Assembly (NCBI RefSeq): GCF_018350175.1
Contig: NC_058368.1
Coordinates: 23,438,001-23,502,000 of the forward strand
DNA length: 64,000 nt
Reading direction: 5' to 3'
From: Felis catus
Lineage: Eukaryota
Shown: one piece after another, positions 29,580 through 64,000 of the stretch
Layout: every line of letters starts with the position of its first letter
Numbering within the stretch: the first letter of the stretch is position 1
The notes under the pieces: generated by a model
Told to the model about the DNA's origin: nothing
What the model saw: the letters and a program-made list of their open reading frames with translations, nothing else
The model's database searches: none
Made by a program: the position numbers and the translations under genes

Positions 29580-29800
29580 TTATTTCTTTTTTAAAAAAGT
29601 TGTTTTAAAGCTTATTTTGAGAGAGACAGAGCAAGTGAGCAGGGAAGGGGGCAGAGAGAAAGGGAAAGGTAGAATCCCAAGCAGACCCTGTGCTGTCAGT
29701 GCACAGCCAGATGTGGGTCTAGATCCCATGAACTGTGAGATCATGACCTGAGCGAAAATCAAGAGTTAGATGCTCAACCAACTGAACCACCCAGTTCACC
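29580..29800 (-). mobile_element. CanSINE inside L1
   Basis: SINE body and tail; ends ctgaaccacccagttcacc. Confidence 0.88.
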
Positions 29801-33489: not shown

Positions 33490-33635
33490 TTAGACCAATA
33501 ACATAGACATCACCTGGTCTTGTTGGAAATGTGGAATTTTAGTTTCCATCCAATACTTGTTGAATCAGAATCTTCATTTTAACAACAACCACAGAGTTGT
33601 ATGCACATTCTTAAAGTTTGAGAAGTGTGGTTTTA
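33490..33635. mobile_element. MER5A-like DNA transposon
   Basis: catcacctggtcttgttggaaatg...gaatcagaatcttcattttaacaa...tatgcacattcttaaagtttgagaag. Confidence 0.7.
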
Positions 33636-33924
33636 AAGTCACCCCTTCCTTTCTTCTAAACAGAGCTAGAGATTAGGGGTTTAACTTTATATTTTAAACC
33701 TTTATCTCCACTACATTCTCTTAAGCAAAAAAAAAAAAAAAGATGCTAAAATATCTATCATCTTAATAAGTGCACTCCAACCCCAGGTGCATATCACCCA
33801 TTTATATTCACTCCCTTTAAAGTCAACCTCCTTGAATGAGACATCTGTGCTCATTGCTCCTGCTTCCTCACCTTCCAACCATTTCTCAGACTTCTATTCT
33901 CCATAATTTTATCAAAACTGCTCA

Positions 33925-34368
33925 TAAGAATGAATGAGATTTTGCTATTAGTGACAACATGGATAGACCTAGAAGATATGCTAAGTAAAATAAGTCAGAG
34001 AGAGAAAGACAAATACCATATGATTTCACTTATATGTGGAATTTAAAAATCAAACCGTTGCAAATAAACAAATGAAAAAATAACCACACTCATAAAGACA
34101 GACAACAAACTGATTGTTGCCAGAAGGAAGGGGTTCGGGAGAATGGGCAAACTGGTGAAGAGGAGTGGGAGGTACCGTCTTCTAGTTATGGAATGAAAAA
34201 TCCATGGGGATAAAAGATACAGCATAGGGAATATAGTCAATGGTATTATAATAGCAATGTATGGTGACAGATGGTAGCTACACTTGTCAGCATAGCATGA
34301 GGTATACACTTGTTGAATCACTATGTTGTACACTTGAAACTAGTGTCAACTACACTTCAGTAAAAAAC
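33925..34368 (+). mobile_element. 5'-truncated L1 3' end
   Basis: acaacatggatagacctagaag...aaataagtcagagagagaaagacaaatacc...gtcaactacacttcagtaaaaaa. Confidence 0.85.
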
Positions 34369-34459
34369 CCACACAAGACATAATGTTGAGTGAAGAAGAC
34401 AGATACCAAAGGTGACTTGTTATATGATTTAGTATGTACAAAGTACAAAAATAAAAAAT

Positions 34460-42562
<8,103 letters not shown>

Positions 42563-45309
42563 TTTTTTGAAAAGGTTATAAAAATAGAGAAGCTAATGTA
42601 TAGTGTTAGAAGTCAGGCTAATGTTTATCCTTGGCAGGATAAGTGCAATGGGCCAAGGGGAGGTTTTGGGGTATTGGTATTGTTCTATTTCTTAACCTGG
42701 TTATGTGAATGTGTTCACACTGTAAATTTATGTGTACTTCTTGGTGTGCATGCTAAACTTTAATAAAAATCTCAAAAATACATTTTCCAAATTGGAAAAA
42801 AAACCCAATCTGTTTGAGCTTACTAAGGATTTTCTAATTTCCAAATCCATTGGGCATCTCGAGTGCTCGCTTTACTTTACCTTTTTGAAGAATCATTGTA
42901 CTTTAATTTATTCTTTCTTTTGTCTATTTTCACAGCAGCTGACTCAGCTTGGGCCACTATCACCTCCTGCCTGTACCCATGCAATTCTCTCCTAACCTAT
43001 TCTTCCCTCTCCAGACAATATACTTTATCCTCTCTAGAGCTTCTTGACTTCTTCTAAATGTAAATCAGATCCGGTTAGTGCTTTTCTTAAGGTTCATATC
43101 TCACAGGTAAAACTCGAAACTTCTTGGGCCATCATAAGAGGACCTTGTGGATTATGTTCATGCCTGACCCTCTACCTCATTTCCTTGACATTCCCTTTCA
43201 TGAAACTTGTGTTTTAGCCAGGCTAGAAGGCTTGCAGTTTCTTGGTATCCCACGTCATTTCCCGTGTCCATGTCTTTGCATTTCCTTCTGCCAGAAACAC
43301 CTTGCCTATTTATCAAGCATGTACTCATTCTCCCAGATCCAATTCAGATGGCTCTCCCTCTGTGGAGACTTCCCTCTCCATTTAGAGGGGATCTCTCTTG
43401 GCCACCATGGGCTGAATTTCTATGATTGTGCTTATCCCTTAGGATAGCAACTACTGTTTACCTCTCCTTCCCTACCAGCCTGTAAACTGGTAGTGGAAGG
43501 TCTTACTCTTACTTGTTTTTATATCCTCAGTGCAGGCATTCTAGGCATGTCATGAATGCTTATTGCATGAACAAATGGATGCCTTAATCAGGTTAGTAGA
43601 GGAGACATTTGTTCATGATGCCACTGCTGTCTCTGCTTGTAGTAGTTTCTGTTCCTGGAACTTGCCCACACCCTTCTGGGACCATAGAAAATTCTCTCTC
43701 CCCTGGGAAGCCCCTCACAAGATGCTCCAGCTGGAAGGGACCTCTTCTTTTCTCGTGCTGAAATACCACTTCTTTCTGCCCCCTCTCTTAGTCACTTACC
43801 TCTTCCTCAGTATTTGTGCTTCTCTTGCTCAACACAAGTCATTTGTAAATTGTCTGAAGGGACTGTGTCTTACTCTTCTGTGTCCTTCCTCCAAATTCTC
43901 ACCAAATGTACATGGAAGACACTTGGTTGATGTCTATTGAGTTGAATCAGCATGGTTTTAACTCACACAAATGTGGAGTTTTCATCTAGAACATAAAGGA
44001 AGCTTAGATTCCTGAACTGGAGAGAATGTTATGTGAGTGGAGCACACAGAGTGATTATTAGCATCAGGCAGGTGGGTCATTACAGAAATCAAAATAACTG
44101 CAAAAGAGAGAGCCTTAGGTCTGAAAAGGCCACCTCTGCAAGGAGGCTGCCTTACAGAAATGCTCTCAACCCCTATGGGGGTGCTTGGTAAACCTGTTAC
44201 ACTGTAGCCTAGGGTGGGGGCAAACACTGCCCTTCACTAAGCCTGTTTAAACTCAGATCAGTTTTGGGGGCCAAGTTCTGGGAAGCTTCTGAAGGGACTT
44301 TTAAGAAGATGTCAAAGGGGAGAATGTGATTAAATTTTCTTGAGCTATGGGAGACCCTGGGAAAAAACATATTCCCTTTGCCTTAACTCCCTTGGATGAA
44401 ACATCATGGTGGAGGAGAGTTCTGATCATTCCCAGAGGGCTTAGAATTCTAATCTTTGGTTAAATTAAGCAGCACTGGAGAGGAAAAAGAACTTACTTGG
44501 TAAAAACAATGAGCTTAAAAGGGACAAGCTGAGCTTGTGGTGCAGCATATGTCTTCAGCAATTAGATGAGCTCAGATCTCATCCTGATTCTTACCCACAC
44601 TGCTGGCCTGAAGAAGGGGCTCAGTAATATCAAATATGCTAGTGGTGAACATTTCCTTTGATTTTCTCATGAGACATCAGAGATTTCAATATTTTCTTGT
44701 AATATGTGTTCATCATGTGCTATTTTAAAACCTGCCTTGAAAACAGGCTTGCAACCCTCAATCCTTTTTTTTTTTTTTTTTTTTTTAAGAGAGCAAGGAT
44801 GTTCATGGCCCAGGTGGCTGCCACTGGAGTTTTGGCCACACTGGGGCAGGTGGGCTGAGTACTGAGGTCCCCACCATTCCTCTGACAGGACAGAAATCCT
44901 GGCTGGGTTACCTTTGAGCTTCTAGGACTTGGGAATGCTGATCAGAGTATGCAGTGTATGCACACAGTTACTCTGTGGCCCAGAAGGGTCATATCTAATT
45001 TAAAAAAATTCTTCAGTATATTCAACCCAATGAAGCATAGACGGAGTGTTTTCATGTTAAGGCTAGAGTAGAGCTGCATTTCAGTGGCTTCCATTTTTTT
45101 TTTTTTTCTTTTCAGAGTAGAGACAAAGGGAAAGGATTAAAGGAGGTTGGAAGACAGCTCTAATTGTATCTTATTCATGTGGTTGATGAACTTAACACAC
45201 ATCTCAATTCCGACATCAAAGAGGCCTGAGTCTTCTCCATCAAAGTGACAGTTCAGTTGGGAAAGCCATTATACCATGTAAGCACAATGAGTGAAATTGC
45301 GTTGGATGT

Positions 45310-45770
45310 TTTGTTTGCCCTTCCAGTTATACTCTCTTCCCTTTTCCATCATGCTTTGAGCCCCATGAATAAATCAGAAGGTTTCTTACCCTCTGGCTCC
45401 AGGTAGGGTTTGGGCAAAGGAAAGCACTAGCAAGAGATTGGAGGGAGGGAGGGCAATCAGGTTGAGGCATTCCTTGGCTTTTCTCCTGGTTATCATAGGT
45501 TATATGAGTTCTTTTACTTAAGAGCACAGCTTCTGTTAAGTGATTGGTCCTCCTTTATAATTTTACTGATTTCTCAAGGTTTTGGTAATTGCCTCTTCCC
45601 CTGCTGGTCCAGTCCTAGGAGGAGATGACAGCTCTCTGGTCTCTCTCTAGCCTCAGGGCTTTGCTATCCTTTTGTATCTTTTGACCCTGGCCACATTTTG
45701 TAAACAGTTACTTTATTAAGGGCCTCCCTGGGTGCCCTCACTAAATGTGTGGCTTATATCCTGCCAGATG
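45310..45770 (+). mobile_element. LTR33-like ERVL solo LTR
   Basis: ccctctggctccaggtagggtttgggcaaaggaaagcactagcaagagattggaggg...tgtaaacagttactttattaag...tcctgccag. Confidence 0.65.
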
Positions 45771-46191
45771 GAGGAGGCACCTTAGAAATGCAGCACAGGG
45801 TCACTTAACACAGCATGTGGGAATTCTGGAAGGTATCCTGGAGGAGGTGAGGCATGAAACAATTAAGGGTTAACCAGGTAGAGGGGAATTTAGGCAGTTG
45901 GCCCTTAAGGGGCTAAGTTGGAAGCAGTTTGTAGTGGTTGAAACATTGTTCCTGAAGGCAAAGACATTACCTGTCTTGCTTATTGTTATAGACTCAGCTC
46001 CCTGAGGACCCAGGGCACATGGTTTATGATCAGTCATCGTTGCTGAATGAATGAAAGAATGGATGAAGGCAGGGAATTGCAAGAGAAGAGGCCAGAATAT
46101 TGTTCTACGGGATCCTGATCACAGGGACACTGTGAAGTCTTGGTAAGGAGCTGGGGTAAAGGGGGAGGACCATATTTAAAAATGTGTAGGG

Positions 46192-46385
46192 GGTAGGCAC
46201 CTGGGTGGCTTAGTTGGTTGAGCATCCAACTTTGGCTCAGGTCATGGTCTCACGGTTCATGAGTTCAAGCCGTGCATTGGGCTTGTTGCTGTCAGAGCAG
46301 AACCCACTTTGGATCCTCTGTCCCCTTCTCTCTGTGGTTCTCCCCTGCTTGTGCTCTCTTTCTCAAAAATAAACATTTAAAAAAT
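46192..46385 (+). mobile_element. CanSINE
   Basis: ggcacctgggtggcttagttggttgag head; flanked by aaaatgtgtagg / atatgtagg. Confidence 0.9.
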
Positions 46386-46484
46386 ATATGTAGGAGGAAC
46401 AAAATCAAAAGAACTTGATGAATACGTTGATGAGTAGAATAAAAGAAGATTCAAAGATGACAAGCAATATGGATCTACATTATC

Positions 46485-46722
46485 TTTTTTTTTAGTTTTT
46501 AAACATTTATTTATTTATTTTATGGTAAAATAGTTGCTTTTTTAAAATATGAAATTTATTGTCAAAATTGGTTTCCATACAACATCCAGTGCTCATCCCA
46601 ACAGGTGCCCTCCTCAATGCCCATCACCCACCCTCCCCTCCCTCCCACCCCCCATCAACCCTCAGTTTGTTCTCAGTTTTTAAGAATTTCTTATGTTTTG
46701 GCTCCCTCCCTCTCTAACCTTT
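46485..46722 (-). mobile_element. Short felid L1 3' end
   Basis: tttattgtcaaaattggtttccatacaacatccagtgctcatcccaacaggtgccctcc. Confidence 0.85.
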
Positions 46723-47046
46723 TAATAAGCCATTTTCTCCTGTATTCATTTGAGGTCCTTTTGTGACCATTAATACTGACACCTTGGGAATTCCTGCTAA
46801 CTGGAGACTTCAACCCTGAGGTAGATTATACCCTACATGTCTAGATAATCATTCAATCAAATGTCCTCCGGCCACCTGAGTTAAAGAGAGCACAGTGCTC
46901 TGTAGTCTCTTAAGCCCAGGCTCTGGGAATTAGCACTAAGCTTATGTGAAGGAGGCCATATCTGCCCTACCAGACAGGCAGCTCTCTCTGAGGGGCTGGA
47001 ACATTTCTTTTGAAAGATGGGCTATTCTCTTTTAAAATGTAAATAC

Positions 47047-47268
47047 TTAAAAAAAATTTTTTTTTAACGTTTATTTATTTTTGAGACAGAGAGAGACAGA
47101 GCATGAACAGGGGAGGGGCAGAGAGAGAGGGAGACACAGAATCTGAAATAGGCTCCAGGCTCTGAGCTGTCAACACAGAGCCCGATGTGGGGCTTGAACT
47201 CATGGACTGCGAGATCATGACCTGAGCCGAAGTCGGATGCTTAACCGACCGAGCCACCCAGGCACCCC
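47047..47268 (-). mobile_element. CanSINE
   Basis: TSD taaaatgtaaatactt. Confidence 0.95.
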
Positions 47269-47718
47269 TAAAATGTAAATACTTTAAGCAGGTTTTCAGA
47301 TTTTTTTTTTTTTTAAAATGACCTTTAAGTCTTCCTTTTACCAGTATTTATTGAGAACCTACTGTGTGCCTGAGGGATAGATTTGGGGATTATAGAGACA
47401 TGATCCTTGCTTTAAAGGGCTCATAGGACATTTCACCTGTAAAGACAAGACAGTATTCCCTCCCACACAGGATGTTCCTAAAAACCTCTGTGGAGAAGTG
47501 TCTGAAGTTTGGGATCCAAACTTTAACTCCTTCAAGAAAGAGCCGTGCATACTGAGATTCTCATGATTGCATAAAAGTGATATAGCCACAACTTTTAGGG
47601 GGGTGGGCAGTGTGGTGGGTCAGCCATGGGTAGTTGGGAGGTGCACATGAAGAGGCACACCAGCTCAGCAGAGGTCAGGGACAACTGCTAAAATGAGGTT
47701 GCATCTGTGCATATAGTC

Positions 47719-47949
47719 TTTTTTTTTTTTTTTTAATTTTTTTTTTCAACGTTTATTTATTTTTGGGACAGAGAGAGACAGAGCATGAACGGGGGAGGGG
47801 CAGAGAGAGAGGGAGACACAGAATCGGAAACAGGCTCCAGGCTCCGAGCCATCAGCCCAGAGCCTGACGCAGGGCTCGAACTCACGGACCGTGAGATCGC
47901 GACCTGGCTGAAGTCGGACGCTTAACCCACTGCGCCACCCAGGCGCCCC
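47719..47949 (-). mobile_element. Young SINEC_Fc-type CanSINE
   Basis: TSD tgcatatagtctt. CpGs retained. Confidence 0.97.
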
Positions 47950-48029
47950 TATGCATATAGTCTTAAAGGGATATTAGGCCTGGGTGGAGAGCTGATGTTT
48001 CTGGAGATGATGTTTCTGTCCCAGCAAGT

Positions 48030-48730
48030 GGTGTATGCAGGGAGAACATTTAGGATTTACTCTCATAGCAACTTTGAAGTATATGATACAGTATCATCAA
48101 TTATAGTAACCACACTATACATTGGATCCTCAGAACTTATTCATCTTATACCTGGAAGTTTATACCTTTTGACCAACATCTCCTTATTTCTCCCCCCCCC
48201 CCCCCCCCCCCCCCCCCGAGTCCCTGACAACCACCACCCTACTGTTTCTCTGAGTTTGGCTTTTTCTCGATTCTACATATAAGTGAGATGATACAGCATT
48301 TGTCTTTGTCTGTCTGACTTATTTCACTTAACATAATGCCCTCAAGGTCCACCCATGTTGTTACAAATGACAGGATTTTCTTCTTTCTCCTGGCTAAATA
48401 ATATCCTATTGTAAATGTTTACCACATCTTCTTTATCCACTCATCAATCACTGGATGCTTAGGTGTTTCCTTGTATTGACTATTGTGAATAATGCTGCAA
48501 TGAACATAGGGGTGCAGATTTCTCTTCAAGATAGTGATTTCATTTTTTTTTCAAATATATACCCAGAAGTAGAATTGCAGAAAAGAAAGTAATTATGTGA
48601 GGTGATGGATGTATTAATTAAGCTTATTGTGGTAGTCATTTTGCAATATATATGTGTTAAATAGTATTGTACACCTTAAACTTATACAATGTTATATGCC
48701 AGCAGTATCTCAATAAAGCTGGAAAGAAAA
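48030..48730. mobile_element. L1MA/MB-like 3' fragments in opposite orientations (- 48030-48580, + 48580-48730)
   Basis: gagaacatttaggatttactctcatagcaacttt... then gtaattatgtgaggtgatggatgtattaatta...tctcaataaagctgg. Confidence 0.7.
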
Positions 48731-49533
48731 GGGTGAATTGTATGTGAATAGGTGAGTTTGTGAAGGTAGATAAATGGCAATATAGGAACTAAGCAGGAGT
48801 CAGATCACACATGCAGTTGCCTGCTATTCTCTTTCTATTAGCTAGTATTCCATTATGAAACAATACTTATTTACAGTAAACAAATCCAAATGATGCAGAA
48901 AGATATAAGGTGAAAAGTAAAAGTTCTTTATCTCCTAGTGCCACTGCCCAGAGGAATCAAAACCTTTAAGATATTCCATGTTTTCTTTCATTTTTCTCTG
49001 TGCGTACCTCCCTGTGCATTCAATCTTTATTTTTACAATTTACACTGTGCCTATTTCTTCAAACTGCTTTTTAAAAACAATTTATTTTTGATATAATTCC
49101 ATTCCATTTCTACCTGACCTAGTTATTGCATCTTACATAAGGAATCATCACAACTTATCAACCAAGTTAAATGATGGACCTTTTGTTGTTTCCCATTATT
49201 ACAATTAATCCTGAAAGCAACTTCCTTACATCTTTGTGCAAATATGTGTATTTGTGAAATAAAATCTTAAAAGTGGGATTGATAGCTGTCTATTGCCATG
49301 TTATTCTTCATAAATTGCACCATTTTTAGCTACACTTGTGGGGAGAATAGCATAGTACACAGAGTTGTTCAATGGCTAGGTTGTATACCTGAAACTCATG
49401 TAACATTATGCTACAACAAAAGAATAAACTTTCTGACAGAATAGGTTCCTATTCAGTTTTAAATAAACATACTCATGTTTGTGAATACAAAAAAAGTTGC
49501 AACACTTCGTATTCACACTAATAAATGTATGTT

Positions 49534-49956
49534 TGTTGAAAGGGGTCAAGAGGATGTGACCGCCTGTTGACCTGTGAGCTACACCTGGGCTATCGGGCTG
49601 CTCACCTGTTCCCCATCCTTGGAATATACCTTCCACTTCCCTGGTTATTCCCACAGCCAGAGCCATTTTCAAGGACGCTTCCTTGAGAAAGCCACATGTT
49701 GTTGAGACCATCTGGGCTAAATTGTGACTGAACTCAGTGCAGGTCTCTATATAAACTTTTAAGATTCTGGAAGGCAGGTGTGGACATCTACTCATTTCCC
49801 AGCTGCCCAAGATAAGCCTGGTAAGTAAGTTCCCTTGCTTATTGAGATGGCCGCCTTCCAGTCTGCAATGGCCTTTCTTCCATCTCTCCTCCTTGCTCTC
49901 TGGGCCAGGAACCAGGTCTCTTTTCACCAGAAAACTCTCAAGGTTGTGAAGCAACA
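49534..49956 (+). mobile_element. Solo LTR (ERV1-like, probably carnivore-lineage)
   Basis: TGTTG...CAACA termini, TSD atgtt/atgtc, TATATAAA at 49748. Confidence 0.8.
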
Positions 49957-52720
49957 ATGTCTGAGAGTGCCAGATACGAGATTTTATTCAACTTGAAAAG
50001 CCTGGAAATTATCATATTTAATATTTCACCATATTGGATATAATTAGACTTTACTGTTGTCTAGCTGATATCTATTTTTCACTTCTCTCCTCTGACTATA
50101 TAATTTACTTAGGTATTGGTAACTTCTTATGTATAAATTGCAAATCCCAGTTAGAATGAAAAGAAAGAAAATCTCATAGGTACTAATTAATAGCTTTCCC
50201 TTATTTGACCATTTAATTTCACTCCTACGTGTACTTCCTCCAGGACATTTCTACAGCTTCTGAAATGTGTTTTCTTTTTCTGCCTTAAGTAATGACTATT
50301 TTAAATTATTGTACATACTAAGTTTTTTCTTAGCCCATCCTTGCTGCTCTCTCTGGGTACTTAACCCTCCTTATTATTTCCTAGTTTTTCAAGGGTAATG
50401 TGGCACCTCAATTTCTGCTTATGTTGTAGTCAGGGAAGTAGAAAATAAGCAAAAAAGAATTCATATAATTTCAGATGGAGATAAGTCATGGAAAAACGAA
50501 GCAAGGGCAGATTACAGAGTGTTTGAATTAGAGAAGGGAGTGGAAGCCGATGTTCACAAATGAAGGTGAAGCAAGACCTCCTAGAAAAAGTGACTTTTGG
50601 GCAGACCCCAAATGGTAAGTGAGAATAAGGCAGGAGGTGAACCAGGCAGATGGAAGAATGTGCAAATGCCCTGGGGTGGGAAGGAGCTTAGCATGTTTGA
50701 GTAGCAAGAAGCCAGCTTGGCAGGTGAGGGATGAACAAGGAAAAGGAAGGGAAGGCCATTAGGAGGAGTTTGGACTTGACTGGTTGGAAGGGAGACCGTT
50801 GGAAGGTGTTAAACTAGGGAAAGACATGATCTGATTTATGTTTTTAAAAGGCCATTCTGGAGATACGTGCTCTACTGCCTCTTCCCCCGACTCTCCAACC
50901 CTCTTAGTCTCCAGCCCTCATAGTCTCAAGATCTTCTCCCTTTGTAAAAATAGCCCTCTTTTTTTTTTTTTAAACCACTTGGCATTGTGAAGTTACCAAA
51001 TAGAACAAAGCAAGGATTAAACTGCTTTATGTGTGGCTTTATATGTGGCCCTTGATCTCTCCTCTGAGTCCTTCAATTCATTTCATCAGAAATAGTTCAA
51101 TTATATCAAGTCATTGGGTGCTAGCTGCAGGATCTGGAGATAGATCTGTCAAAAGATTAGATGCCATTTAAAAACAATCATTGTTGTCTTATAACACGTC
51201 CAAGTACAGATCTGGGTTGCTTTAGGTGCATCCTTTAACTTATTTAACTTGTTAGAGTTGCCTGAAATGTTCCATTCCCATGGAAGTTTAAAAGGAAAGC
51301 AATTTAACATAAATCCTTTCCTTTTTCCTCTGTCTCTAATTTTTATTAAAGTTCTCTTTGTGTAAAAACATTGCCTATAAAAGTCAACTTGAATGTGAAT
51401 TACAATTAGAGATACAGCCTCTGAGGTTGCCAAAAGAGGTTCTTCACAGATCCATTAACATTTCCCCAGTTCTCTGTTGGATGATGTAGATTCAGCTCCA
51501 GGACAGCTTTTGGCTACTTCTCCATTTAGCCTCGGCACGTTGGCTGATGTCTATCAAGCTAATTGCTGGCTAATTCTACAATAGATGCGTCCCAGGTGTT
51601 TTCTGCCATCTCTTGAAGCTTGTACTCTGTTTCCTTCTGCACTTGGACTCCTACTTACATCTTCACTGACTTGCATAATGCATAAGTATCTAATCTCTCA
51701 GAAAGCTAAGACTCTCCTTGTTGTAAGCCCTGGATTAAAAAAATCCTTGCTGACTACCGTGAGTAGTTTAGGAATTCTGATTAACAGCAAAAATCAAGTC
51801 TGAATGACTTGATTATTTGAAACTCAAATCTGGGACTGTGACACACAATAGCCAAACCATACAGTGCAAACAGAAAGGGAGTTGGCTGGGGTAGGTGGTG
51901 GGGAGTATTGGGGGGTGGTAGTGAAAGGAAGGTGTCAAAGAGGAGTGATAGGCAGTGCCCACACAACTGTGGTGTCTGCTGTCTCATGTACTACTTGCTA
52001 ATACAACAGCAGTGAGTGGACCTACAGCTTTAAGAGGATGCCAGCTATCCCTCCATGTTGCTTTTACTCTAGAAGCTAAAAGTTTGGAATCTGATGTTTT
52101 CTAGAACCTCAGATGATAGACTCTTTGGCATCCTGGGTGGAATTTTTGTTATCAGTCTTTGAAGCCACAGCTTTTATCTATGATCTGTTACGGAAAGTTT
52201 GTTTGAGTAGTACCTTCCTAAAGACACCCATCCTGAACCACTGTGTTTAAAATTGCAACACTCCAGACTCCCTATACCTTGTTGTTATTTCCTTTTTCCT
52301 GCATCTGTCACCTTCTAATATACTATGCTGACTATTTATTCTGTTCATAGTCTTTTTCTTTTTCCCCTGCTAGAATATAAGCCTCAAGACTACAGGGATA
52401 TTTGTTTTAGTGATTCACATATCCCAAGCACTTATTTAGAACAATGCCTGGAACACAGTAGGTGCTTAATAAGTATTCCTTGAGTGAATGAATGATGTCT
52501 CAAAATAATAATAGGTAGTAAATATCAGCTCAAGATTCTTTCTTATTTTGGGGATCTGATTAATTCAGCTGTTCAACCAATCTTCATTTGTGAACACTTG
52601 CATAATGTAATGTACTGTATCTACATCTATCATAACTTTTAGTATAATTTCCTTACCTACCATGTATATTTCAGTCTTAGGCTCAGACTATCAAAAGCCA
52701 TTAAACTAGCTATTACCTTC

Positions 52721-52936
52721 TTTTTTTTTTTTTCAACGTTTATGTATTTTTGGGACAGAGAGAGACAGAGCATGAACGGGCGAGGGGCAGAGAGAGAGGG
52801 AGGCACAGAATCGGAAACAGGCTCCAGGCTCTGAGCCATCAGCCCAGAGCCTGACGCGGGGCTCGAATTCACGGACCGCGAGATCGTGACCTGGCTGAAG
52901 TCAGACGCTTAACCGACTGCGCCACCCAGGCGCCCC
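52721..52936 (-). mobile_element. Young SINEC_Fc-type CanSINE
   Basis: Perfect 14-bp TSD gctattaccttctt (52709-52722, 52937-52950). Confidence 0.97.
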
Positions 52937-53073
52937 GCTATTACCTTCTTGATAGACAAATTGATCTAATATAGTGTGATCCCTACAATTAAGTATATAA
53001 TATCTTAAGATCTTTTCATTATATACCACTTTTACTTTTATGTGAACATCCCCTCTCCTTCAATTTATCATAG

Positions 53074-53726
53074 TGTCTCTGGTGGGAGAGTCTGCCCTGT
53101 GTGAATGGAGGTCTCAGCCCTTGAATTCCCCCGCGAAAACATTTATGTGACTATCCATGCTGGAGTAAGACAGCCAGAAGGAAAGTAGTAAGCACAAAGG
53201 AGTTTATTAAAGCAAAAGTACACTCTCAAGGTGGGAGAGGGGCAGGGTGCTTGAGGTGGCTCCAGGGTTGTTTTGGTATTGGATATTTTTTGCACCTCTT
53301 CGAGCTTGGAGGAGCTGTGGCTACAGTGGGGTGGTCTCTACTGGAGGCTGATTCTAATAATTTGGGGCAAGTCCTTTAACAGGTTGGGGAGTTTTTGACC
53401 CTTTACAAGGTTGTACCAGAACCATCATGGAAACCTTTCTCTATCAGGTGGGGCTGTCCCGCTGTGCAAATGCATTACAATGAGTCTAGGGGTTACCCTG
53501 GGGCAGAGGTGGAAGAGGAAAGCTCATGCTCCGCACCTGGGGCTCTTGATCTTTCAGCCCCAAGGTCTTGGAAGCCCCTGGGTCAGGATGTTGTGCCCCA
53601 GGCTTCTAATGTACCTTATTTCTTACCATCCTTGCCCCCGTTTATGTCTCTATCATTCCCCTTTAAGGATTTGGGACTCTGCCTCCCGCATTCCTTCCAC
53701 TGCTGACATCTAGTTTCTACCTAACA
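53074..53726 (-). mobile_element. Solo LTR (ERV1-like)
   Basis: TG...CA ends (tgtctctgg...ctacctaaca), minus-strand AATAAA near 53203, and a GC-richer block than the flanks. Confidence 0.6.
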
Positions 53727-53899
53727 TCAGCTAAGTACTTGATTACTAACTATAAAGTGCCATCGGAATTTCAGTCTTATGGTGCTTGTAATGATTTTAA
53801 AATGTAATTGGATAATAGTTTTGTTATTGGTGGTGATAGCACCTCGGGATTTATTCTCATGAGATGTAAGTTGCACACTGGCCTGCTGCAAATGTTTCC

Positions 53900-54350
53900 T
53901 GCTAGCTGTGCTCCCTGCCTCCAGGTCTTTCCCCCTTGACTCTATCCTCTACAACTGCATCAGACTGTCTTCCCTAAAGCCCAGCTGTGACCATCCACGC
54001 TAATCTCAGAAACTTTCAATAGTCCCCCGTGTCTATGCAATTAAGCCCCAATCTTTAGCATCTTACTGAAAGTTCTCTTTAATGACCTCAAATCACCTTC
54101 ACAGGCTTACTTCACTGTCTATTTTCATATTCCTACATAATCAGGAGAGTCATTGCTTCCCCTTGTGCTCTAGGCATTGTGATTCCTGAACTTGTCTCAT
54201 GCTGATTCCTCTGACCAGGAATGCCCCACAGCCTGGGTTCTGTCAAATTCTTGTCATCTTTTAGACCTCGGTGAAAGGCCACCTCCTTTATGGAATTTTT
54301 TTAAATTCCCATAATTGGTTGTGCTCCTCCTCTCTTTGAAGTACTGTAAC
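53900..54350 (+). mobile_element. L2 fragment
   Basis: tcttccctaaagcccagctgtgaccat...aaactttcaatagtcccc...gctgattcctctgaccaggaatgcc. Confidence 0.6.
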
Positions 54351-54419
54351 TTAAAAAAAAATCACGATGTATAGATTCTAGTTCTTTTTTAAAACTTTCT
54401 TTTGTTGTGGTAAGAACTT

Positions 54420-57400
54420 TCTTTTTCCAGTTTCACCAAGGAATAAAATTGACAAATAAAATTGTAATATATTTGAAGTATACAGTGTGATGACTTGATA
54501 TACATATGTATTTTGAAAAGATTCCCACATATAAGAGATACCATGCAGTATTTGTCTTTCTCCATCGGGTTATTTTACTTTGTGTAATACCTTCTAGATT
54601 CATCCATTTGTCACGCATGGCAGGATTTCCTTCTTTTTAAAGATCAAATAATATTTTATTGTGTATATATGCCACATTTTCTTTATTCATTCATCTGTTG
54701 ACAGACATTTAGGTTGTTTCCATACCTTTGCTGTTGTGAATAATGTTGCGAAGAGCATGAACATGGGAGGGCAGGAATCTCTCTGAGCTCCTGATTTCAA
54801 TTTCTTTAGTTATGTATATCCCAAAAGTAGGATTGCTAGATCATATGGTAGCACTATTTTTAATTTCTTGAGGACATTTCATAATGTTGTTCATAATGAT
54901 TGTACACTTTACATTCCCACCAACAGTATAGAAGAATTCCCTTTTCTTCACATCCTTACCAGCACTGGTTATCTCTTGTCATTTTGATAATAGCCTTTCC
55001 AGTGGGTATGAAATAATATCTCATTGTGGTTTCAGTTTGCATTTTCCTGATGATTAATGATTTTGAGCATCTTTCCATTTACCCATTGGCCACTTTTATT
55101 TCTTTTTGGGAAAATATTTATTCGGGTCTTTTGCCCATGTTAAAACTCTTTGCTATTGTGTTATAGGAGTTTCGTGTATATTTTGGATATTAGATATGTC
55201 GTTTGCAAATATTTTCTTTCATTCTGTGGGTTGGCTTTTCATTTTGCTGATGGTTTCCTTTGCTACACAGAAGATTTTTTATTTGATGTAGCCCCCTTGT
55301 TTATTTTTGCTTTTGGTTTCGTTTTTGATGTTAAATCCAAAACTTATTGCTCAGACCAATGTCAAGGAGCTCATCCCCTATGTTTTCTTGTAGGAGTTTT
55401 ATAGTTTCAGGTCTTATTTTCAAGTCTTTAATTCATTTTTGTGTATGGTATAAGATAGTGGTGCAGTTTATTTCTTTTGCATGTGGATGTACAATTTTCT
55501 GAGCATCATTTATTGAAGAGGCTGCTCTTTCCCCAGTGTATTTTCTTGGATACTTTGTCCAAAATTAATTGACCATATAAAGCATGAGTTTGTCATGGAT
55601 TCTTGGTTCTCTTCCACTGATTTATGTGTCTGTTTGTATGCCCATCTATATTGTTTGGATTACAATAGTTTTGTAATATAGTTTGAAATCAGGAAGTGTG
55701 ATGTCTCAGGCTTTGTTTCCTTTCTTAAGATTGTTTTGGCCATTTTGGGTCCTAGTGATTCCAGATTTTAGGATATTTTTCTACTCTATGAAAAATACAT
55801 GGAATTTTGACAAGGGATTGCTTTGAATCTGTAGATTACTTGTGTAGTATGGGCAGTTTTACAGCATTACTTCTTCTAATCCATGAAAACAGAACATCTT
55901 TCCATTTATTTATATCTTCAATTTTTTAATCAATATTTTATACTTTTCAGTGTACAGAACTTTCCATTCCTTGGTTAAGTATTTTATTCTTTTTGATGTT
56001 ACTATAAATGGGATTGTTTTCTTAATTTTTCTTTTTGATAGCTTATTGTTAGTATTTAGAAATATACCTGAACTTTGTATATTGATTTAGTTTCCTGCAG
56101 CTTTATAAAATTCATTTATTTGTTCTAACAGTGTTTTTGGTGGAATCTTTAGATTTTCTGTGTATTAGATGATGCCATCTGTAATTTCTTTCTTTTCTGA
56201 TTTGGATGCCCTTTCTTTCCTTTTTTTCCCCCCTAATTGCTATGGCTACCAATGTCAATTGCTATGCTATGTTCAGTGGAAGTTGTGAGAGTGGGCATTC
56301 TTGTTTTGTCCCTGTTCTTAGAGGAAGAACTTTTAGGTTTTTACCATTGAAAAGCTTACCATGATGTTAAGAGTGGGCTGGAAATATATAAATTTTATTA
56401 TTTTGAAATACATTCCTTCTATTACCAATTTGTTGAGAATTTTTATCATAAAAAGGATGTTGATTTCTTTCAAATGCTTTTTCTTCATGTATTGAGATGA
56501 TCATATGATTTTTATCCTTCATTTTGTTAATGTGGTGTCTCACATTGATTAATTTGCATATGTTGAAGTATCCTTGTACCTTAAGAGTAAATCCCACTTG
56601 ATCATGATGTATGATCTTTTTAATGTATTGTTGAATTCAGTTTGCTTATATATATATATTTTAAATGTTTATGTATTTTTGAGAGAGACAGCATGAGCAG
56701 GGAATGGGCAGAGAGAAAGAGGGACAGAGAGAATCCCAACAGGATCCACACTGTCAGCGCAGAGGCTGATACGAGGCCCAAACATATGAATCATGAGATC
56801 GTGACCCAAGGTGAAACCAAGAGTTGAACGCTTAACTGACTGAGCCACCCAGGCACCCCAGTTTGCTTATATTTTGTTTAGGAGTTTTGCCTCTGTAGTT
56901 TTTTCTTTCTTCTAGTGTCCTTGTCTGATTTTGGAATCAGGGTAAAGCTGGTCTCTTAAAATAGTTTGGAAGTTTTCTCTTTTCAGTTTTTTTTTAAAGA
57001 GTTAGAGAAGGACTGGTATTCTCCTTTAAATGTTTGGTAGAATTCATCAGTGAAGCCTCTGGTCCTGGTGAGGATACAACATCTTTTGTTTATTGGTAAG
57101 GTTTTGATTAGTGGTTCAATCTCCTTAATTATAATTGGTCTATCCCATTTTTCTATTTCTTCATGATTCAGTTTTGGTCGGTTGTATGTTTCTAGGAATT
57201 TCTGGTTTCTTCTAGGTTGTCTAATTTGTTGGCATATAATTGCATATAGTAATTTCTTATGATCCTTAGTATTTCTGTGTTAACCATTGTGATGTCACCT
57301 CTTTCATTTCCAGTTTTGGTCTTCTCTCTCTGTTTTTTTTTTCTAGTTTTTATAGAGAAAATTTTTCTTACTTAAAAAATATTCGCTCAATATTAGAAAT

Positions 57401-57690
57401 TGATCTTTTCTATTTTTTTCTAGTCTATTTTATTTATATTTGCTCTGCTTTGTTATTTTCTGCCTTCTATTAACATTCTTCTAGTTTTTCTAGTTTCTTG
57501 AAGTGTAATATCAGGTTGTTGATTTGAGATCTTTCTTTTTTCGTAATGTAGGTGCTTATTGCCATAAACTTCCCTGGTAGAACTGCTTTCAGTGCATTCC
57601 ATTAGTTTTGGTTTGTTGTGTTTCCATTTTCATTTGTCTCAAGATTTTTTGGATTCCATTTTGATTTTTTCTCTGGCCCATTGGTCTGGC
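54420..57690 (-). mobile_element. 5'-truncated older L1 (L1MA/L1_Carn-like), decayed ORF2 plus 3'UTR
   Basis: ORF fragments [29 protein letters not shown] and MNLEGITQSKIT; 3'UTR at 54420-54540. Confidence 0.88.
56655..56859 (-). mobile_element. CanSINE inside L1
   Basis: TSD cagtttgcttatat. Confidence 0.93.
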
Positions 57691-58719
57691 CTGGCAGCTA
57701 ATATTTGTTCTCAGCCACATTTTACCTTTTACCATGCTTGGAGGAGATAGGGCTATCAAGTTTTCTTATTCTCTACAAACTTCGTGTTCTTGTCACCTAC
57801 TTTTTGACATTTCTGTGATCTAGGCAGCTAGAATATAAGTTTTCTTGACCCCTTGCAGACTGCAATCTCATCTCAATCAGAATTGTCAAGTGGGTTGCTG
57901 AAAGCCACTCTTTAGCCTGATTGGAGAATAGAGCCCTACCTGGCTGCAGACAACTCTTTGCTGGGTATTTCCCAAACCTAGGACATTTCCTGCTTGAGTA
58001 CATGGCTGAATCACAGAATATGTTCAGTCTGACCTCAGCATCTTTCACTTGTATGAAGCTGGAACCAATTATCAGAAAGAAATATTCTCTATTGAGTTTA
58101 GGAATTTTCAATTACTGAAGTTTCCTTTTAGAACAGAAATGTACTTTTTATTGTGCCAGACTACATGATTTTTTTTTTTATCTTTGAATGAACACATGGT
58201 TATTTTTTTTTTTTTTGAAGCCTGACTCTTGGAAAGCAGTCTTATACTAATATTTATTTAAACATGGCCGACTATGGGTCAGAAAATCTAAGAGGTAATT
58301 TGAAATGCACTTTGGAGTATGTTATATTCAAATCTTCCAGGAGATCAGTATGTTTCACTAAACTAGATACACAAAATTTTATATATTCCTTAATATATGA
58401 ACGATGATTTTTACCAATAACATTTATAGTATTGTGGAGCTAACTCATCAAAGATAATTCTCTACAAGTGCTGCCAAAAATCAGAGCTGATCTTGGCATG
58501 AATCCAATGTTTCTGGGTCTGAAGTCTTAGGTCTCCAGGCATGGGGAATTTGGCCTTCTATCATCAAGACAACAAGAGAATTTCCTACATTTTGCCTAAA
58601 ATGAAACTCAACCAATTTTTCTCCCATTTAGCACTTTAGTTACTTACCTCTAGTTATTTTTCACTGATAGGAAAGAAACTACTTTTATCAAAGAACATAG
58701 AAATGCAATTCATTTCTTT

Positions 58720-58920
58720 CTTTTTTAATGTTTATTTATTTTTGAGAGAGAGAGAGAGAGAGAGGAGGGGAGGGGCAGAGAGAGAGGGAGACAGAAGATC
58801 TGAAGTGGGCTTTTTGCACTGACACCAGAAAGCCCCATGTGGGGCTCGATCTCATAAACTGCACGATCAAGACTTGAGTCAAAATCAGAAGCTTAACCAA
58901 CTGAGCCACCTAGGTGCCCC
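58720..58920 (-). mobile_element. CanSINE
   Basis: TSD caattcatttctt / cagttcatttctt. Confidence 0.93.
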
Positions 58921-59514
58921 TCAGTTCATTTCTTGAATGCCTGTTTTTGCGGGTACAGTGTGTCACGGGAATTTTTAAAATGAGTAAACTGTGGTCTCTG
59001 CTCTTTAAGGAATGGCAATTCAGTAGTAGGGACAGGTAAGGCATAAATAGCTAGAATACAAGGTAGCTCTAATCAGTGCTATAATTAGGATGTGCAAATA
59101 CCAGAGTATGAGAGATTAATGGTTTTAGATTACGAAAGACTTCCTTCTCCTATTTTCTTCTAGAAACTTCCTTAGGCTAACACTTCTGGCCTCTCTCCCC
59201 ACTAAGTGAGGAGAAGTGATGTTCAGATCTACTCTCCAATCTATCAGTTTCAGTGGTAGAGGCCTCTGACCTTGTAAGCAAAGACTGTTTGTCTATGTTT
59301 GCCTTAGTGAGAAGCTTAATTCTGGCATTTAATAGGCCTCTTTGCCTTTTGTACCTTGCTCTTCAACAATGGTAATAAATTAATGATAATATTGCCAGAG
59401 ATCAGAATGTGTGGTATAAAAACACATATAAACACTTTTATCAAAACAATTTAATTGTAGAGATATGCTAAGTTACTTCTCATTTTATTGATCAGTTACT
59501 TGAAAAATTCTGCA

Positions 59515-59915
59515 CTGTTAGCTTTTTGCTGATGCAATGTAGTATAATGAATAATTCCAAAATTTAGTGGCTTATGATAACAAATATTGATTCACTGCTT
59601 ATAAGTCTAATGGTGGGCTGGCCATGGCTCTCCTGGGCTTTGCTAAGCTTGATGTGTCTTTCATTCTGGGATCTTCTTTGGCGTGAGTTATTCTCATGGT
59701 GGAGGACAGGAATGCAAAAGGGGCAAACTGAAGCTTGTAATACCTCTTACAGTCTCTGCTAACAGCTGGCATATTGTCATCTCTGTTCACACTTGATTGG
59801 TTAAGGCAAGTCAAATGACCAACTCCAAAGCCAATGGGGCAAGGACATCTACTGTATTCACAGTGAACCATGACAAAGATGAGGACAGAATAAAGGGTTG
59901 TGATATAATTTCCCA
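59515..59915 (-). mobile_element. MLT1 solo LTR
   Basis: gttagctttttgctg...caaaatttagtggctta...ttggttaaggcaagtcaaatgaccaactccaaagccaatgggg. Confidence 0.7.
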
Positions 59916-60239
59916 TATGTACTTCTGGGTTTCAGTTAGTTTCTTGTATATAGAATCTTTAGCTACTTCATGCTATTTGCATCATCTAACTTATTTATTC
60001 CATCTGTCTTTGATAAAACTCTGAAGACATTCACAATTCTTTAGTCTCCTGCCATAGAGGATCATTTGGGTGAATATTTTAATGTAAGTTAGTAAATATT
60101 ACTAAATATTTAATGTGAATTATTTTAATATTCATAAAACTTTGGAAGAGCCTGTGAGGTTGGACAAATTCTTTACTACCAGAAAATATTTATTTCTTAA
60201 TATTCTTAGATGAACTGGGGTCATAATTACTGTTCTGTT

Positions 60240-60750
60240 TGTGGTGGGCAGACTATAGGGTGCCTCCATGATCCCTGCTTCCTGGTTCTCTGATTCTTGT
60301 GGTCTCCTTTTCTTGAGTGTCAGTAGAGCTGTGACTTGCTTGTAACAAATAGAATATGACAAATGTGATAAGACATATGTGATTATATGTAAGTGATTAT
60401 ATAATATTGTAAACCCTGTCCTGCAAGGATATTCTTTCCTGCTGGCTTTGAGGAAAGGTATGACTATGTTGGGAAGGCAGAGATCTGAGAGTGGCTTCCA
60501 GCCAATGGTTAGCAAGAAAGTGAGGTTCTCAGTCCAACAACTTAATAAAACCAAATGCTGGTAACAACTATGTGGGCTTGGGAATCGATCCTTTCAGTTG
60601 GGACTCAGATTAGACTGCAGCCCTCACTGATATTTAGATTGGAACCTTGTGAAATCATGAGTCACAGGACCCAACTAGGCCCATACTCTTGGTCCATAGA
60701 AACTGAGATAATAAGTGTGTATATTTCATGTATTGTTAAACATTATTAGA
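60240..60750 (+). mobile_element. MLT1 (E/F-like) solo LTR
   Basis: tgtggtgggcagactatagggtgcctccatgatccctg...gctggctttgagga...ccatagaaactgagataataag. Confidence 0.75.
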
Positions 60751-61261
60751 AAACTTTTTAATCCATTATCCATTTTGGAGTATCAAGGATAAAATGTCTT
60801 TGTTAATTGTGTTACCTGCTAATTTTATTTGTTTCATTTCGGTTTCCTACTTTGTTACTATTGGTTTTGTTTGTGTATTAACATCAAGAATTTTGGGTGG
60901 TAAATTCTGTGTAAGCAGATTTTCTTAAATCCCTTCATCTCATACATACTTTTATGTTTACAGAAAATTAAAAATACATGCTTTTAAATTAATATTTAGT
61001 AAACCTCTACAATGTATTTGGCACAATCCTATGTGATGGGGCTACAAAGCAAGAGACACAGAAATGGTTCCTGCCTTCATAAAGTTTATGTTTTATTGGA
61101 AGAATCAGATAATAACAATGAAATACAGTTTTGAAATTACACACTTGAATAACTGCATGAAGAAAATAAATAAGTTGCTGCTATCTAGGAGTAACTAGAT
61201 CTTTTCTAGCAAAGTCTTTTGAGGAGTTAGCATTTAAACTGAGATTTAAAAGATGAGAAGC

Positions 61262-61478
61262 GGGGCGCCTGAGTAGCTCAGTCAGTTGGGCGTCCAGCTT
61301 CGGCTCAGGGTATGATCTTGTGGTTTGTGAATTCCAGGCACACGTGGGGCTCTGTGCTGACAGCTCAGAGCCTGGAGCCTACTTCGGATTCTGTGTCTCC
61401 TTCTCTCTCTGCCCCTCCCCCACTTGTGCTCTGTCTTTCTCTATCAAAAATAAATAAATGTAAAAAAAAATTGTAAAA
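61262..61478 (+). mobile_element. CanSINE followed by a SINE 5' fragment (61495-61600)
   Basis: TSD aaaagatgagaag on both sides. Confidence 0.93.
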
Positions 61479-61692
61479 AAAGATGAGAAGGTGAGGGGCA
61501 ACTGGGTGGCTCACTTGGTTATGACTCTTGATCCCAGTTCAGGTCTTGATCTTGGGGTTGTGAGTTCAAGCCCTGTGTTGGGCTCTGTGCTAGGCATGAA
61601 GGTTATGTAAAGAGATAGGTAGATGAGAATGTGCAAATTTAATCTCATCACTTTAGAACTGGATGAGTTCTGTTGGTGCAGAATTTTGTTTG

Positions 61693-61696
<4 letters not shown>

Positions 61697-61735
<39 letters not shown>
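61697..61735. repeat. (TG)n microsatellite
   Basis: Perfect dinucleotide run of about 19 units. Confidence 0.95.
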
Positions 61736-61739
<4 letters not shown>

Positions 61740-62849
61740 AAAATATGGATTGGATAGGAATTGGGTTCAGAAATGAATGCAAACAAAAATATCTTGGATT
61801 TCAAGAGACTGAAAGAAAATATAATTAACAAAAAGTGTATATAATCTTGTGATAACTTGGATAGGAATTGTATGGTATAATACTATGTCAACAATTCTTA
61901 GGTTAAGAAAAAAGATACTTAAAAATAATAGAGACATTGAGTCCCATCTAGTACATGTTGGCCATATATATACTTATTTATGAGAGCAGAGTGAAGATAT
62001 TTCTGAAACTGCTTTGTATAACTATCTCCCTCTGCATCTCTTCCTTTTTTTTCTGCAATTGTTCTGCTGGCTTTTATTAAGCCATAGATATTTCACCCCA
62101 CTGTGAATCTAAATCTTTTGCTCCGGTTATTTCTACACACCTGCACTGAATTTTAGAACAGAGGTCAGTATACATTCTGGGAACACCACAAAGAAAATAA
62201 AATTTTCTCTTACTTTGGCTTGAACTTTTTTTTTTCCAGTCAGTTTCCAGAGTGTTTGTTTCTCAGGCATTTTCTCTTGATGGCAAAAGTCTGTCTCCCA
62301 AAAGCATGTTTGGAACTGAAAGTGCATTTGTCTTGAAAGGCTGGCGCCATCTTAAGTGTAAATGTGTGCTTTGTGAACATTAGTAGTTGTTGAGAAAGAC
62401 AAATAATGGAGATTGTGTGTATGAGTTCTCTGTGTCTGTATGTGGGAGAGGGAGAGGGAAGTGGGAGGAAGATTAGAAGGGAGTCAGGAGGAAGAAGCAG
62501 AAGAGAAGTAAGGAGAGAAAAAGGACGTTGTTTGAGACAGTTGATAAACAGAAATCAGTTTGACCTGAAGCAGGTGCCAGAGTTACAAAGACCATCACAA
62601 TAGAACTATATGTACTGATGAGACAGGAAATGATGGGAGAAGGGGACCACTTAGAGGAATCTTGTCAGATAGACAGGAAGGTACCAGAGAAGAAAACTAG
62701 GAACGATATAGTCCTCCTTTTCTGGGCTATGTTCTAGAAAAAGTGGCTAACTCAAGCTCCTTGTGACAATGGGTTTAATGATTCAGGAGCCAACTTTTTC
62801 AGGACTAGGATCTAGATAAGCAGCTAGATACCTGGAGTGTTGTTTTATT

Positions 62850-64000
62850 TTTCCTTTTAGTTAAGTTTTTAATTTTAATTCCAGTATAGTTAACATATGG
62901 TGTTATATTAGTTTCAGGTGTACGATATAGTCATTCAACAATTCTATACATTTCTCAGTGCTCCTCATGATAAGGATACTCTTAATCCCCTTCATCTATT
63001 TCACCCATTCCCCCACCCACCTCACCTCTGATATGCTTTATTTTAAACAAGTACCCTTACTTAAGGTTTTTTCTTTCAACAAGATCAATTTTTACTTGAA
63101 GCATACTTCAGAATACATGATTCTAAAAGATACATTTAAAATATTCCATCCAAGAAAGATGGAATACACACTTTCTTCTAGAACACATGGAAGAATCCCC
63201 TGGTTAACTCACATAATAAGAAACACAACAAATAGTACACATTTAAGAAGATTGAAATCAAATCATTCTAATCACAATGGCACACAACTAAAGATCAACA
63301 ATAAAACAAAGCCGGAAAATTTACAGGATAAATATTAAATATTTAACATATTAATATTAAACATCACACTACTACATAAGCAATGGGCCAAATAAATCAA
63401 ATGGAAAATCAGAATAGGTCTCAAAAGAAAAACACAATATTTCAAAACCTATGGGATGTAGCAAAAGCAGATGTTAGAGTGAAATTTATCATATAAATGC
63501 TTGTATTAAGTTGTTTATTTGAACTTTTTTTCTTAACATTATAACACAAGGAACTAGAAAAAGAAGAAACTTAGCTGAAATTTAGCAGAGGAAGGAAATA
63601 AAAGAAAATTCAGAAATAAAATAGAGATCAGAATAAACAAATACATAACATTGAACATAGTGACCAGTTTTTCCAAAAAAAAATAAGCAAAATTGGCAAT
63701 GCTTTAACTACATTAAAAAAAGGAACAGAGAAGCCTCAAAAACCAAAATGAGAAATGGAAGACAGTCATCAGATAAACACAATGTGATAACAAGTTACTA
63801 TAAACAATTATATACTAATAAATCAGATAACTTAGAAAAAAACCAGACAATTCCTAAAAATGCACAAGTTGCCATGAATATTTAATCCAAGAAATAGCAA
63901 ATCTCCTTAGACAATAACAAGAATGAAAGTTGAGTTAGGAATCAAAAATCTCCCAGCACAGAGAAGCCCACGACCACATGGTTTCACTGGTGAATACTAC
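62850..64000. mobile_element. L1 3' end (- strand, 62850-63030) followed by a decayed L1 ORF2 fragment (+ strand, ~63110-64000, running off the window)
   Basis: tttaattccagtatagttaacata... 3' end; then FHPRKMEYTLSSRTHG and gatggtttcactggtgaa-like ORF2 motifs. Confidence 0.8.

Follow-up and report, generated by a model that had tools for sequence, protein, structure and literature searches.

Probable remains of a long-dead RGS22-related gene in the cat genome: a lead on a lost gene

Candidate exons and their surroundings

The window considered here is a 64-kb stretch of Felis catus DNA (NCBI RefSeq assembly GCF_018350175.1, contig NC_058368.1), on the minus strand of which lies a series of exon-sized segments (Table 1) that a sequence-only reading had described as an 11-exon decayed gene. 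The segments are where that reading placed them, 20 of its 21 short peptides being recovered on the minus strand in the expected places, with the missing one crossing a junction, and the sites it quoted (gcactttcag, GTAAGA, ttggttccag, taatccag, GTAAGT, ATGAAT, ATGAGT and tatAC) are all present. There are indeed 11 pieces, though the exons number 10, exon H being cut in two by a SINE flanked by a target-site duplication. The AATAAA noted about 110 nt downstream is found at close to that distance, yet in DNA where the motif is common.

Table 1. Features of the locus (positions within the window)
Feature	Position	Strand	Description
Exon A candidate	62214..62315	minus	102 nt; frame open; ordinary AG acceptor; GTAAGA donor within top 5%
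Exon B candidate	61974..62140	minus	splice sites ordinary; three-frame translation
Exon C candidate	60136..60214	minus	79 nt; 0 stops; donor ATGAAT non-consensus
Exon D candidate	59923..60048	minus	126 nt; 3 stops (TAA, TGA, TAG); acceptor good
Exon E candidate	59355..59413	minus	59 nt; 1 stop; AC acceptor
Exon F candidate	58449..58557	minus	109 nt; 1 stop; non-consensus donor ATGAGT
Exon G, short form	57940..58058	minus	119 nt; ends at CAG/GTAGGG, strongest of all donors here
Exon G, long form (sequence-only reading)	extends to 57801	minus	frame open in short and long forms
LINE-1 fragment with nested SINE, G-H intron	54503..57683	minus	many copies elsewhere in window; labelled by eye and from ORF2-like frames
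Exon H, 5' half	52937..52992	minus	start 52992 (decayed AC acceptor) if G is short
Exon H, 5' half, alternative start	52982	minus	after AG, if G is long
Young carnivore SINE within exon H	52709..52936	minus	14-bp target-site duplication, both copies seen
Exon H, 3' half	52661..52708	minus	3 stops; ends E-I-Y-M at strong donor GTAGGT
Exon I	51659..51729	minus	71 nt; 1 stop; sole segment with both sites in top 2%
Exon K candidate	51455..51575	minus	2 internal stops; ends at TAA
AATAAA	51342..51347	minus	108 nt past last stop; chance rate 2.3 per kb

The exons are single-copy and flanked by repeats, with no copies elsewhere in the window; this status is defined by copies within the 64 kb, a definition that old low-copy repeats could also satisfy. 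Repeat alignment touched the two halves of exon H solely as run-on from the SINE, of which the window holds 22 further copies, and left the other 9 of the 11 pieces untouched. Rfam gave 0 matches to structured RNA across 57900-64000, and inspection by eye of minus-strand frames for further exons, in 42800-51700 and the non-repeat parts of 1-25100, yielded nothing firm. We take exon A, for which no RGS22 match is apparent, to be the least certain member. Exon B is probably frameshifted, with its true end near 62028 instead of 61974, because the word G-V-K-Y-L-W-L, in the putative RGS22 register (below), sits in a different frame from the one originally chosen.

The joined frame and its lesions

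Exons C to K join as a single 263-codon frame without a frameshift; the B-C junction is out of phase if the AG is used. Three of the seven junctions are GT-AG, including H-I and I-K with donors in the top 2%, and the other four require a non-consensus site that was picked to preserve phase. The lesions of the joined frame are 11 stops (in 261-263 codons; the other two frames have 18 and 24) and the SINE, with its target-site duplication, inside exon H. Its helical moment is 0.298, compared with 0.267 ± 0.020 for shuffles (P=0.07). Eleven stops correspond to 0.2-0.6 substitutions per site, a divergence from which more frameshifts are expected than the gene model has, and this counts against the model.

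Splice and exon-chain signals in relation to chance

That no gene ever stood here, the exon-like islands having arisen by chance in old, AT-rich DNA that is unique or derives from ancient repeats, with boundaries, frames and near-consensus sites freely chosen and the RGS22 likeness a product of pattern-seeing, is unlikely but the most serious of the alternatives. Signals drawn from the sequence itself, namely chain score, stop count and splice sites, do not exceed chance or the window's other DNA. The best stop-tolerant exon chain on the strand of the locus scores 19.9 per kb, the lowest among 8 strand/region sets, the other 7 giving 24.0-29.2 per kb; it beats all 12 local shuffles (145.9 vs 120 ± 10), and exon I alone is recovered by it exactly. 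A random frame would carry 16.5 ± 3.9 stops as against the 11 seen (P=0.09), and when the best of three frames is taken the null is 7.1, fewer than observed, as would suit chance islands. The top 5% of GT/AG sites include 4 of the 9 donors, strong ones remaining at A, G, H and I, and 2 of the 10 acceptors, the remainder being ordinary. Splice scores near background, like the lack of excess conservation in exon G (below), had been named beforehand as outcomes that would tell against a former gene.

Conservation and age

A phmmer search of 1.84 billion proteins gave only 4 matches, each an unnamed gene call made on the orthologous DNA of a mammal. Since at least 3 other lineages carry the orthologous stretch, at 50-83% residue identity, the locus is old. 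Divergence of exon G, the only exon so compared, looks neutral in all six orthologous gene calls (P0002-P0007), identity being at or below that of the flank on at least one side: 33/40 within the exon against 6/7 and 39/46 in the flanks for P0002, 23/40 against 25/39 and 22/45 for P0003, and 15/27 against 32/46 in one flank for P0004. Since exon G is not conserved above its flanks, nothing there is alive, and with the stops and the SINE this agrees with the original description of the segments as dead, unprocessed and not themselves a repeat seen elsewhere in the window. In Data S1 of a PhyloCSF survey, human chr13:47-48 Mb is missing from all 56 chr13 entries (PMC6886504). Equal divergence of exon and flanks, this blank in the survey list and the blank fragment searches described next are what chance islands predict, but they are also expected of a gene that died before the placental radiation.

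Searches for a protein family

Family searches used unspliced pieces, each holding at most about one-third of an RGS domain. Pfam gave nothing at a meaningful E-value for 18 long frames (one DUF, at 0.21), 27 exon frames or 5 proteins, and the RGS profile PF00615 matched 0 of 45 frames from such unspliced pieces, the RGS domains of RGS22 being themselves divergent (PMC13443885). None of 8 PDB queries, one of them in the wrong frame, gave an RGS protein at E<=10, an RGS22 chain being presumed, from axoneme structures that model RGS22, to be among the sequences searched. The best PDB match (E 0.065) was to a designed protein and names no family; those to CD200R, HP0242, Cas12i, a cytokine receptor and coatomer (E 0.15-1.9) were judged to be chance. 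Three word searches, with exons F and G (longer) and with exons C and D (longer, near), gave 0 of 126, 0 of 31 and no candidate; among metagenomes 0 of 477 pattern matches were confirmed and a degenerate exon-G pattern had 0 matches; and two open pieces had no usable match in the ESM Atlas. Literature search listings contained no account of an RGS22-like paralogue, of the motif together with RGS22, or of such a locus. The claim of a real former gene was confirmed by no tool, and the unspliced pieces gave no multi-exon protein match, a result of little weight for decay of this degree.

Likeness to RGS22 and RGSL1

RGS22 is a metazoan component of radial spokes, needed for cilia to beat in a coordinated manner, and is part of a sperm-specific spoke bridge (PMC13443885, PMC11779644); its four RGS-like domains span mouse residues 408-530, 664-779, 846-975 and 1019-1141 (PMC13443885). 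In length the segments at the cat locus fit two RGS-fold domains in tandem, each some 120 residues long; the block from the end of F to I has about 105 codons, close to the size of domain 2 in RGS22, with 116 residues (mouse 664-779; PMC13443885, as above).

The match to RGS22 was made after the peptides had been seen, and may be biased by that. What the sequence-only reading had offered as a loose RGS22/RGSL1-like flavour becomes, on this post hoc comparison by eye, a putative set of ordered, largely gap-free matches to RGS22 domains 1-2, stronger than was claimed. Words that presumably follow the order of these domains are G-V-K-Y-L-W-L in exon B, H-L..Y-F-L in C, W-N..E-V-A-K in D, T-H-S in E, R-P-K-T and V-E-N in F, L-Q-P in G, E-I-Y-M in H and the L/Y spacing in I. 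Counted from V-E-N through exon I, about 22 of 99 residues would be identical, ungapped over three junctions, and the D-E junction, with its AC acceptor, would likewise hold register. Exons B to K appear colinear with the two domains; this presupposes that the linker falls short of the RGS22 one by about 90 residues. The exons could also be read against domains 3-4, with a weaker fit. It is on this comparison by eye that the case for a former gene rests, and against chance islands stands the order of the presumed matches over eight segments, in register across junctions set by splice signals.

This likeness, comprising the presumed ordered words, the block of domain-2 size, short exons and the helical pattern, has to be set against the differences: the cat locus is disabled, only two domains are seen and no search matched it to RGS22. 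Identity is presumably only about 22%, and the region, probably 13q14-like, differs from the 8q22 position of RGS22.

Quite improbable is a decayed multi-exon gene of another family, be it that of RGSL1 or of some helical protein with no relation to RGS22; so is an incomplete RGS22 copy that was dead on arrival and without function of its own. The low presumed identity would suit either, and the stops allow a divergence of up to about 0.6 per site, a level at which the ancestor and its relic should share 32% identity. RGSL1 is a testis-expressed multi-RGS-like protein encoded at 1q25. It presumably belongs to the same broad family, and a word of exon E may resemble it, but no ordered run of matches to it is apparent and its neighbours, RGS16 and RNASEL, do not fit the placement of the cat locus. 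A divergence of 0.5-0.6 substitutions per site should have left neither a gap-free register nor donors that can be recognised, and their retention would favour a coding period as a separate paralogue.

Nature of the remains and their significance

The stretch probably holds the long-dead remains of an RGS22-related gene, to be treated as a lead on a lost gene and not as an established find because no database search confirmed the kinship. On balance the locus seems best read as a pseudogene of the RGS22 family, unprocessed, dead since roughly the time of the placental radiation and probably lying between SUCLA2 and HTR2A; the once-coding frame, the kinship, the position and the age are what we infer, while the segment positions, the joinable C-K frame, its stops, the SINE in exon H and the neutral-looking divergence of exon G are observed. 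The segments would be what survives of the internal exons of a gene with introns and, as in RGS22, several tandem RGS-fold domains, and would cover about two of these plus their linker. Translation would have ceased in the distant past, no later than about the placental radiation, with stops, splice-site changes, a few indels, the LINE-1 and SINEs gained afterwards, and the present-day locus would have no role as a protein gene. By analogy with RGS22 (PMC13443885, PMC11779644), the living ancestor would most likely have been a non-catalytic RGS-fold scaffold of the radial spokes in motile cilia or sperm tails, and not a G-protein GAP. Ancient unprocessed or unitary pseudogenes found by comparative annotation (PMC6886504) are likewise relics of exon size that carry stops, have lost splice sites and lie where genes are few; a search match tied those to an intact orthologue, whereas the cat locus has no such link and looks more decayed.

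A tentative extension is that a third multi-domain RGS22-like vertebrate gene once lay beside SUCLA2 and HTR2A, intact still in some non-placentals and lost in the placental ancestor, and that it encoded a radial-spoke paralogue not recognised so far, the loss of which would mark a shift in how mammalian sperm or cilia are designed. If so, marsupials, reptiles or amphibians would be expected to have a gene that annotation has passed over, the paralogue would be a candidate to explain why spoke make-up differs between lineages, and PhyloCSF-type surveys would have overlooked an old gene loss. For the cat nothing follows, the locus being dead or never a gene.

Very improbable is continued splicing of the segments, as a non-coding RNA or as a short transcript coding for a product of the open exon G frame: the frame of this longest exon is, as originally claimed, open for 104 codons in cat, it is open too in P0002, P0003 and P0004, and the strong donors persist, but openness among the matches is selected, since gene callers report open frames only, P0003 has a compensated frame change within exon G, P0004, P0005 and P0007 are without its first third, and exon H contains the SINE. 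Part of 57800-60300 is contained in 20 of 24 rows of sequencing runs, with no bearing on splicing or expression. Six of the rows are RNA: five metatranscriptomes, three of them with shares of 0.45-0.74, and a transcriptome of another organism at 0.05. Exonic sequence makes up 492 of the 2501 bases of that interval, and the higher metatranscriptome shares therefore probably reflect DNA carry-over.

Exon chain

The ten minus-strand segments, exons A to I and K, are probably the remains of an unprocessed pseudogene whose ancestor would have been an RGS22-like, multi-RGS-fold ciliary scaffold gene with its own coding life, dying no later than about the placental radiation and now presumed inert. 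The short peptides of the sequence-only reading are, with the exception of one spanning a junction, found in minus-strand frames at their proposed places (20 of 21). Its eleven exons are indeed eleven pieces, though of ten exons, exon H being split in two by a young SINE, which is flanked by a target-site duplication of 14 bp. Joined, C to K share a single reading frame of 263 codons, interrupted by 11 internal stops. Junctions E/F, H/I and I/K are GT-AG. A site one base off consensus is needed at C/D, D/E, F/G and, with the short form of exon G, G/H; the off-consensus sites described earlier are borne out, with four junctions involved rather than three when short G is used. B/C is out of phase if the AG of that junction is used, and exon B, judging from its register with RGS22, probably stops ~50 nt short of the end originally proposed, with a frameshift inside it. 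No further copy of any exon occurs in the window. An AATAAA, first placed about 110 nt after the last stop, is 108 nt from it (local rate 2.3 per kb).

The longest exon, G, has two candidate forms. The short one makes use of the strongest donor in the locus (9.3 bits, 0.2 per kb) and leaves H dependent on a weak AC acceptor (-8.1 bits). The long one, first proposed, uses GT and AG sites and is open over its entire length in cat and three orthologous gene calls, the frame continuing open beyond the strong donor in P0002, P0003 and P0004. That this frame is fully open in cat holds, over 104 codons.

Upstream of exon A by 30 nt is the YY1/initiator-type word AAGATGGCG; from its ATG a different frame stays open for 36 codons, as far as 62240. 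Two stretches appear by eye to be old MaLR (MLT1-type) LTR remnants, a second copy of either not being found in the window. The one at ~60240-60790 ends ~25 nt before the exon C acceptor and may have removed its pyrimidine tract.

Features of the minus-strand locus and its surroundings (window positions)
Feature	Position	Strand
Word AAGATGGCG	62345-62353	-
Exons A-I, K	62315 down to 51455	-
Putative MaLR remnant	~60240-60790	-
Putative MaLR remnant	~59520-59900	-
Open frame of exon G	57797-58111	-
Exon G, short form	57940-58058	-
LTR-looking stretch	~53150-53700	
Exon H, halves	52937-52992, 52661-52708	-
SINE within exon H	52709-52936	
Longest open frame	49406-49987	-
Stretches faintly like later RGS22 domains	~7200-7400, 44740-44800	-
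LINE-1 pile	~24700-42700	both

Signal and chance

On sequence alone the exon chain is not more than chance, and chance exon-like islands, unlikely as we hold them to be, are a serious rival. When sites are scored with splice matrices and ranked against GT and AG sites of the unmasked window DNA, the top 5% takes in the donors of A, G, H and I (4 of 9) and the acceptors of D and I (2 of 10), exon I alone being strong at both ends. A stop-tolerant exon-chaining program, run on 8 strand/region sets and 12 local shuffles, gave the exon strand the lowest score of the eight (19.9 per kb, the others 24.0-29.2) and one above every shuffle (145.9 vs 120 +/- 10); it recovered exon I exactly, and for B, D, F and K only single ends. 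Random frames of equal lengths contain 16.5 +/- 3.9 stops against the 11 observed (P=0.09), and the best of three frames 7.1; the other two frames of the join have 18 and 24. The helical moment of the joined frame is slightly raised (P=0.07).

Likeness to RGS22

Comparison with human RGS22 was made by eye, after the peptides had been seen. By this comparison the exons seem to lie in order along domain 1, linker and domain 2, with matches at G-V-K-Y-L-W-L in exon B (second frame), H-L..Y-F-L in C, W-N and E-V-A-K in D, T-H-S opening E (its register kept over the AC acceptor), R-P-K-T and V-E-N in F, L-Q-P ending short G, E-I-Y-M ending H, and an L and Y pattern in I. Counted by eye between V-E-N and the end of exon I, ~22 of 99 positions are identical, gap-free over three junctions; a rough hand score of this block is modest, borderline against one protein and not significant against a database. 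Such a score explains the blank searches and also limits the RGS22 claim, beside which descent from another gene family, or a copy dead on arrival, would be improbable. The domain 1-2 reading requires a linker ~90 residues shorter than that of RGS22, and an ordered but poorer fit can also be made to domains 3-4. No defining feature of the RGS22 family was found in the analysis, so the locus is not assigned to it. The block from the end of F to exon I, ~105 codons, is near the length of RGS22 domain 2. According to PMC13443885, RGS22 has four RGS-like domains of ~120 residues (mouse 408-530, 664-779, 846-975, 1019-1141) without G-alpha contact residues, and PMC11779644 locates it to radial-spoke heads and a sperm-specific spoke bridge.

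Searches with unspliced pieces of the chain in Pfam, PDB (eight), three protein word searches, two metagenome scans and the ESM Atlas found no named relative, nor the multi-exon protein match that had been hoped for; Rfam gave no match, and a literature search no description of such a locus. With 20-60 informative residues per query, little power is expected at low identity, so the blank result speaks more strongly against the libraries containing a close, intact orthologue than against a distant relative. Survival of an intact RGS22-like paralogue in non-placental vertebrates is conceivable, though we lean against it.

Conservation and age

The frame holding F and G, searched with phmmer against 1.84 billion proteins, gave 4 matches (E 7e-22 to 2e-4), all unnamed clusters of one or two members from Logan and ENA assemblies. 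They continue uninterrupted through the supposed intron, and are therefore gene calls on orthologous mammalian DNA rather than spliced proteins. The excess conservation looked for in the segments, and tested for exon G, is absent, exon G being no better conserved in these calls than its flanks: identities are 33/40 vs 6/7 and 39/46 (P0002), 23/40 vs 25/39 and 22/45 (P0003, with P0006 alike), 15/27 vs 32/46 (P0004), and 20/40 and 21/40 vs 9/10 (P0005, P0007). Within exon G, P0003 shows a frame change that is compensated, and P0004, P0005 and P0007 differ over the first third of the exon. The region is therefore old and neutrally evolving in the lineages of those calls; a living transcript, as far as sequence can indicate, would be most improbable. 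Of the 56 chr13 places in Data S1 of a PhyloCSF survey (PMC6886504), none is at 47-48 Mb.

At 0.2, 0.3, 0.4 and 0.6 substitutions per site, neutral decay simulated on open frames with the same codon make-up produced 6.9 +/- 2.6, 9.4, 11.5 and 14.5 stops, respectively. The 11 stops therefore imply at least 0.2 substitutions per site, which at mammalian rates would mean an order-of-magnitude age of 100 million years. A locus that old is expected to have several frameshifts, and the exon model has one or two; more may be concealed at the four odd splice sites, and the shortfall counts against accepting the single C-K frame at face value.

Genomic setting

No protein gene is evident among the 60 open frames of at least 90 residues in the window, the longest of which (193 codons) is within an LTR-looking stretch; there is another such stretch. 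By human coordinates, with a 13q14 inversion allowed for, the window would lie in the gene-poor interval between SUCLA2 and HTR2A. Of this placement PMC6478563 bears out only the position of SUCLA2 in 13q14.2. Carnivore SINEs and LINE-1 are present by eye; over one stretch of 18 kb, LINE-1 fragments of both orientations are piled up, and SINEs are nested among them. Two short stretches noticed by eye faintly resemble the later domains of RGS22, which could well be chance; were the likeness real, the relic would extend far downstream of exon K.
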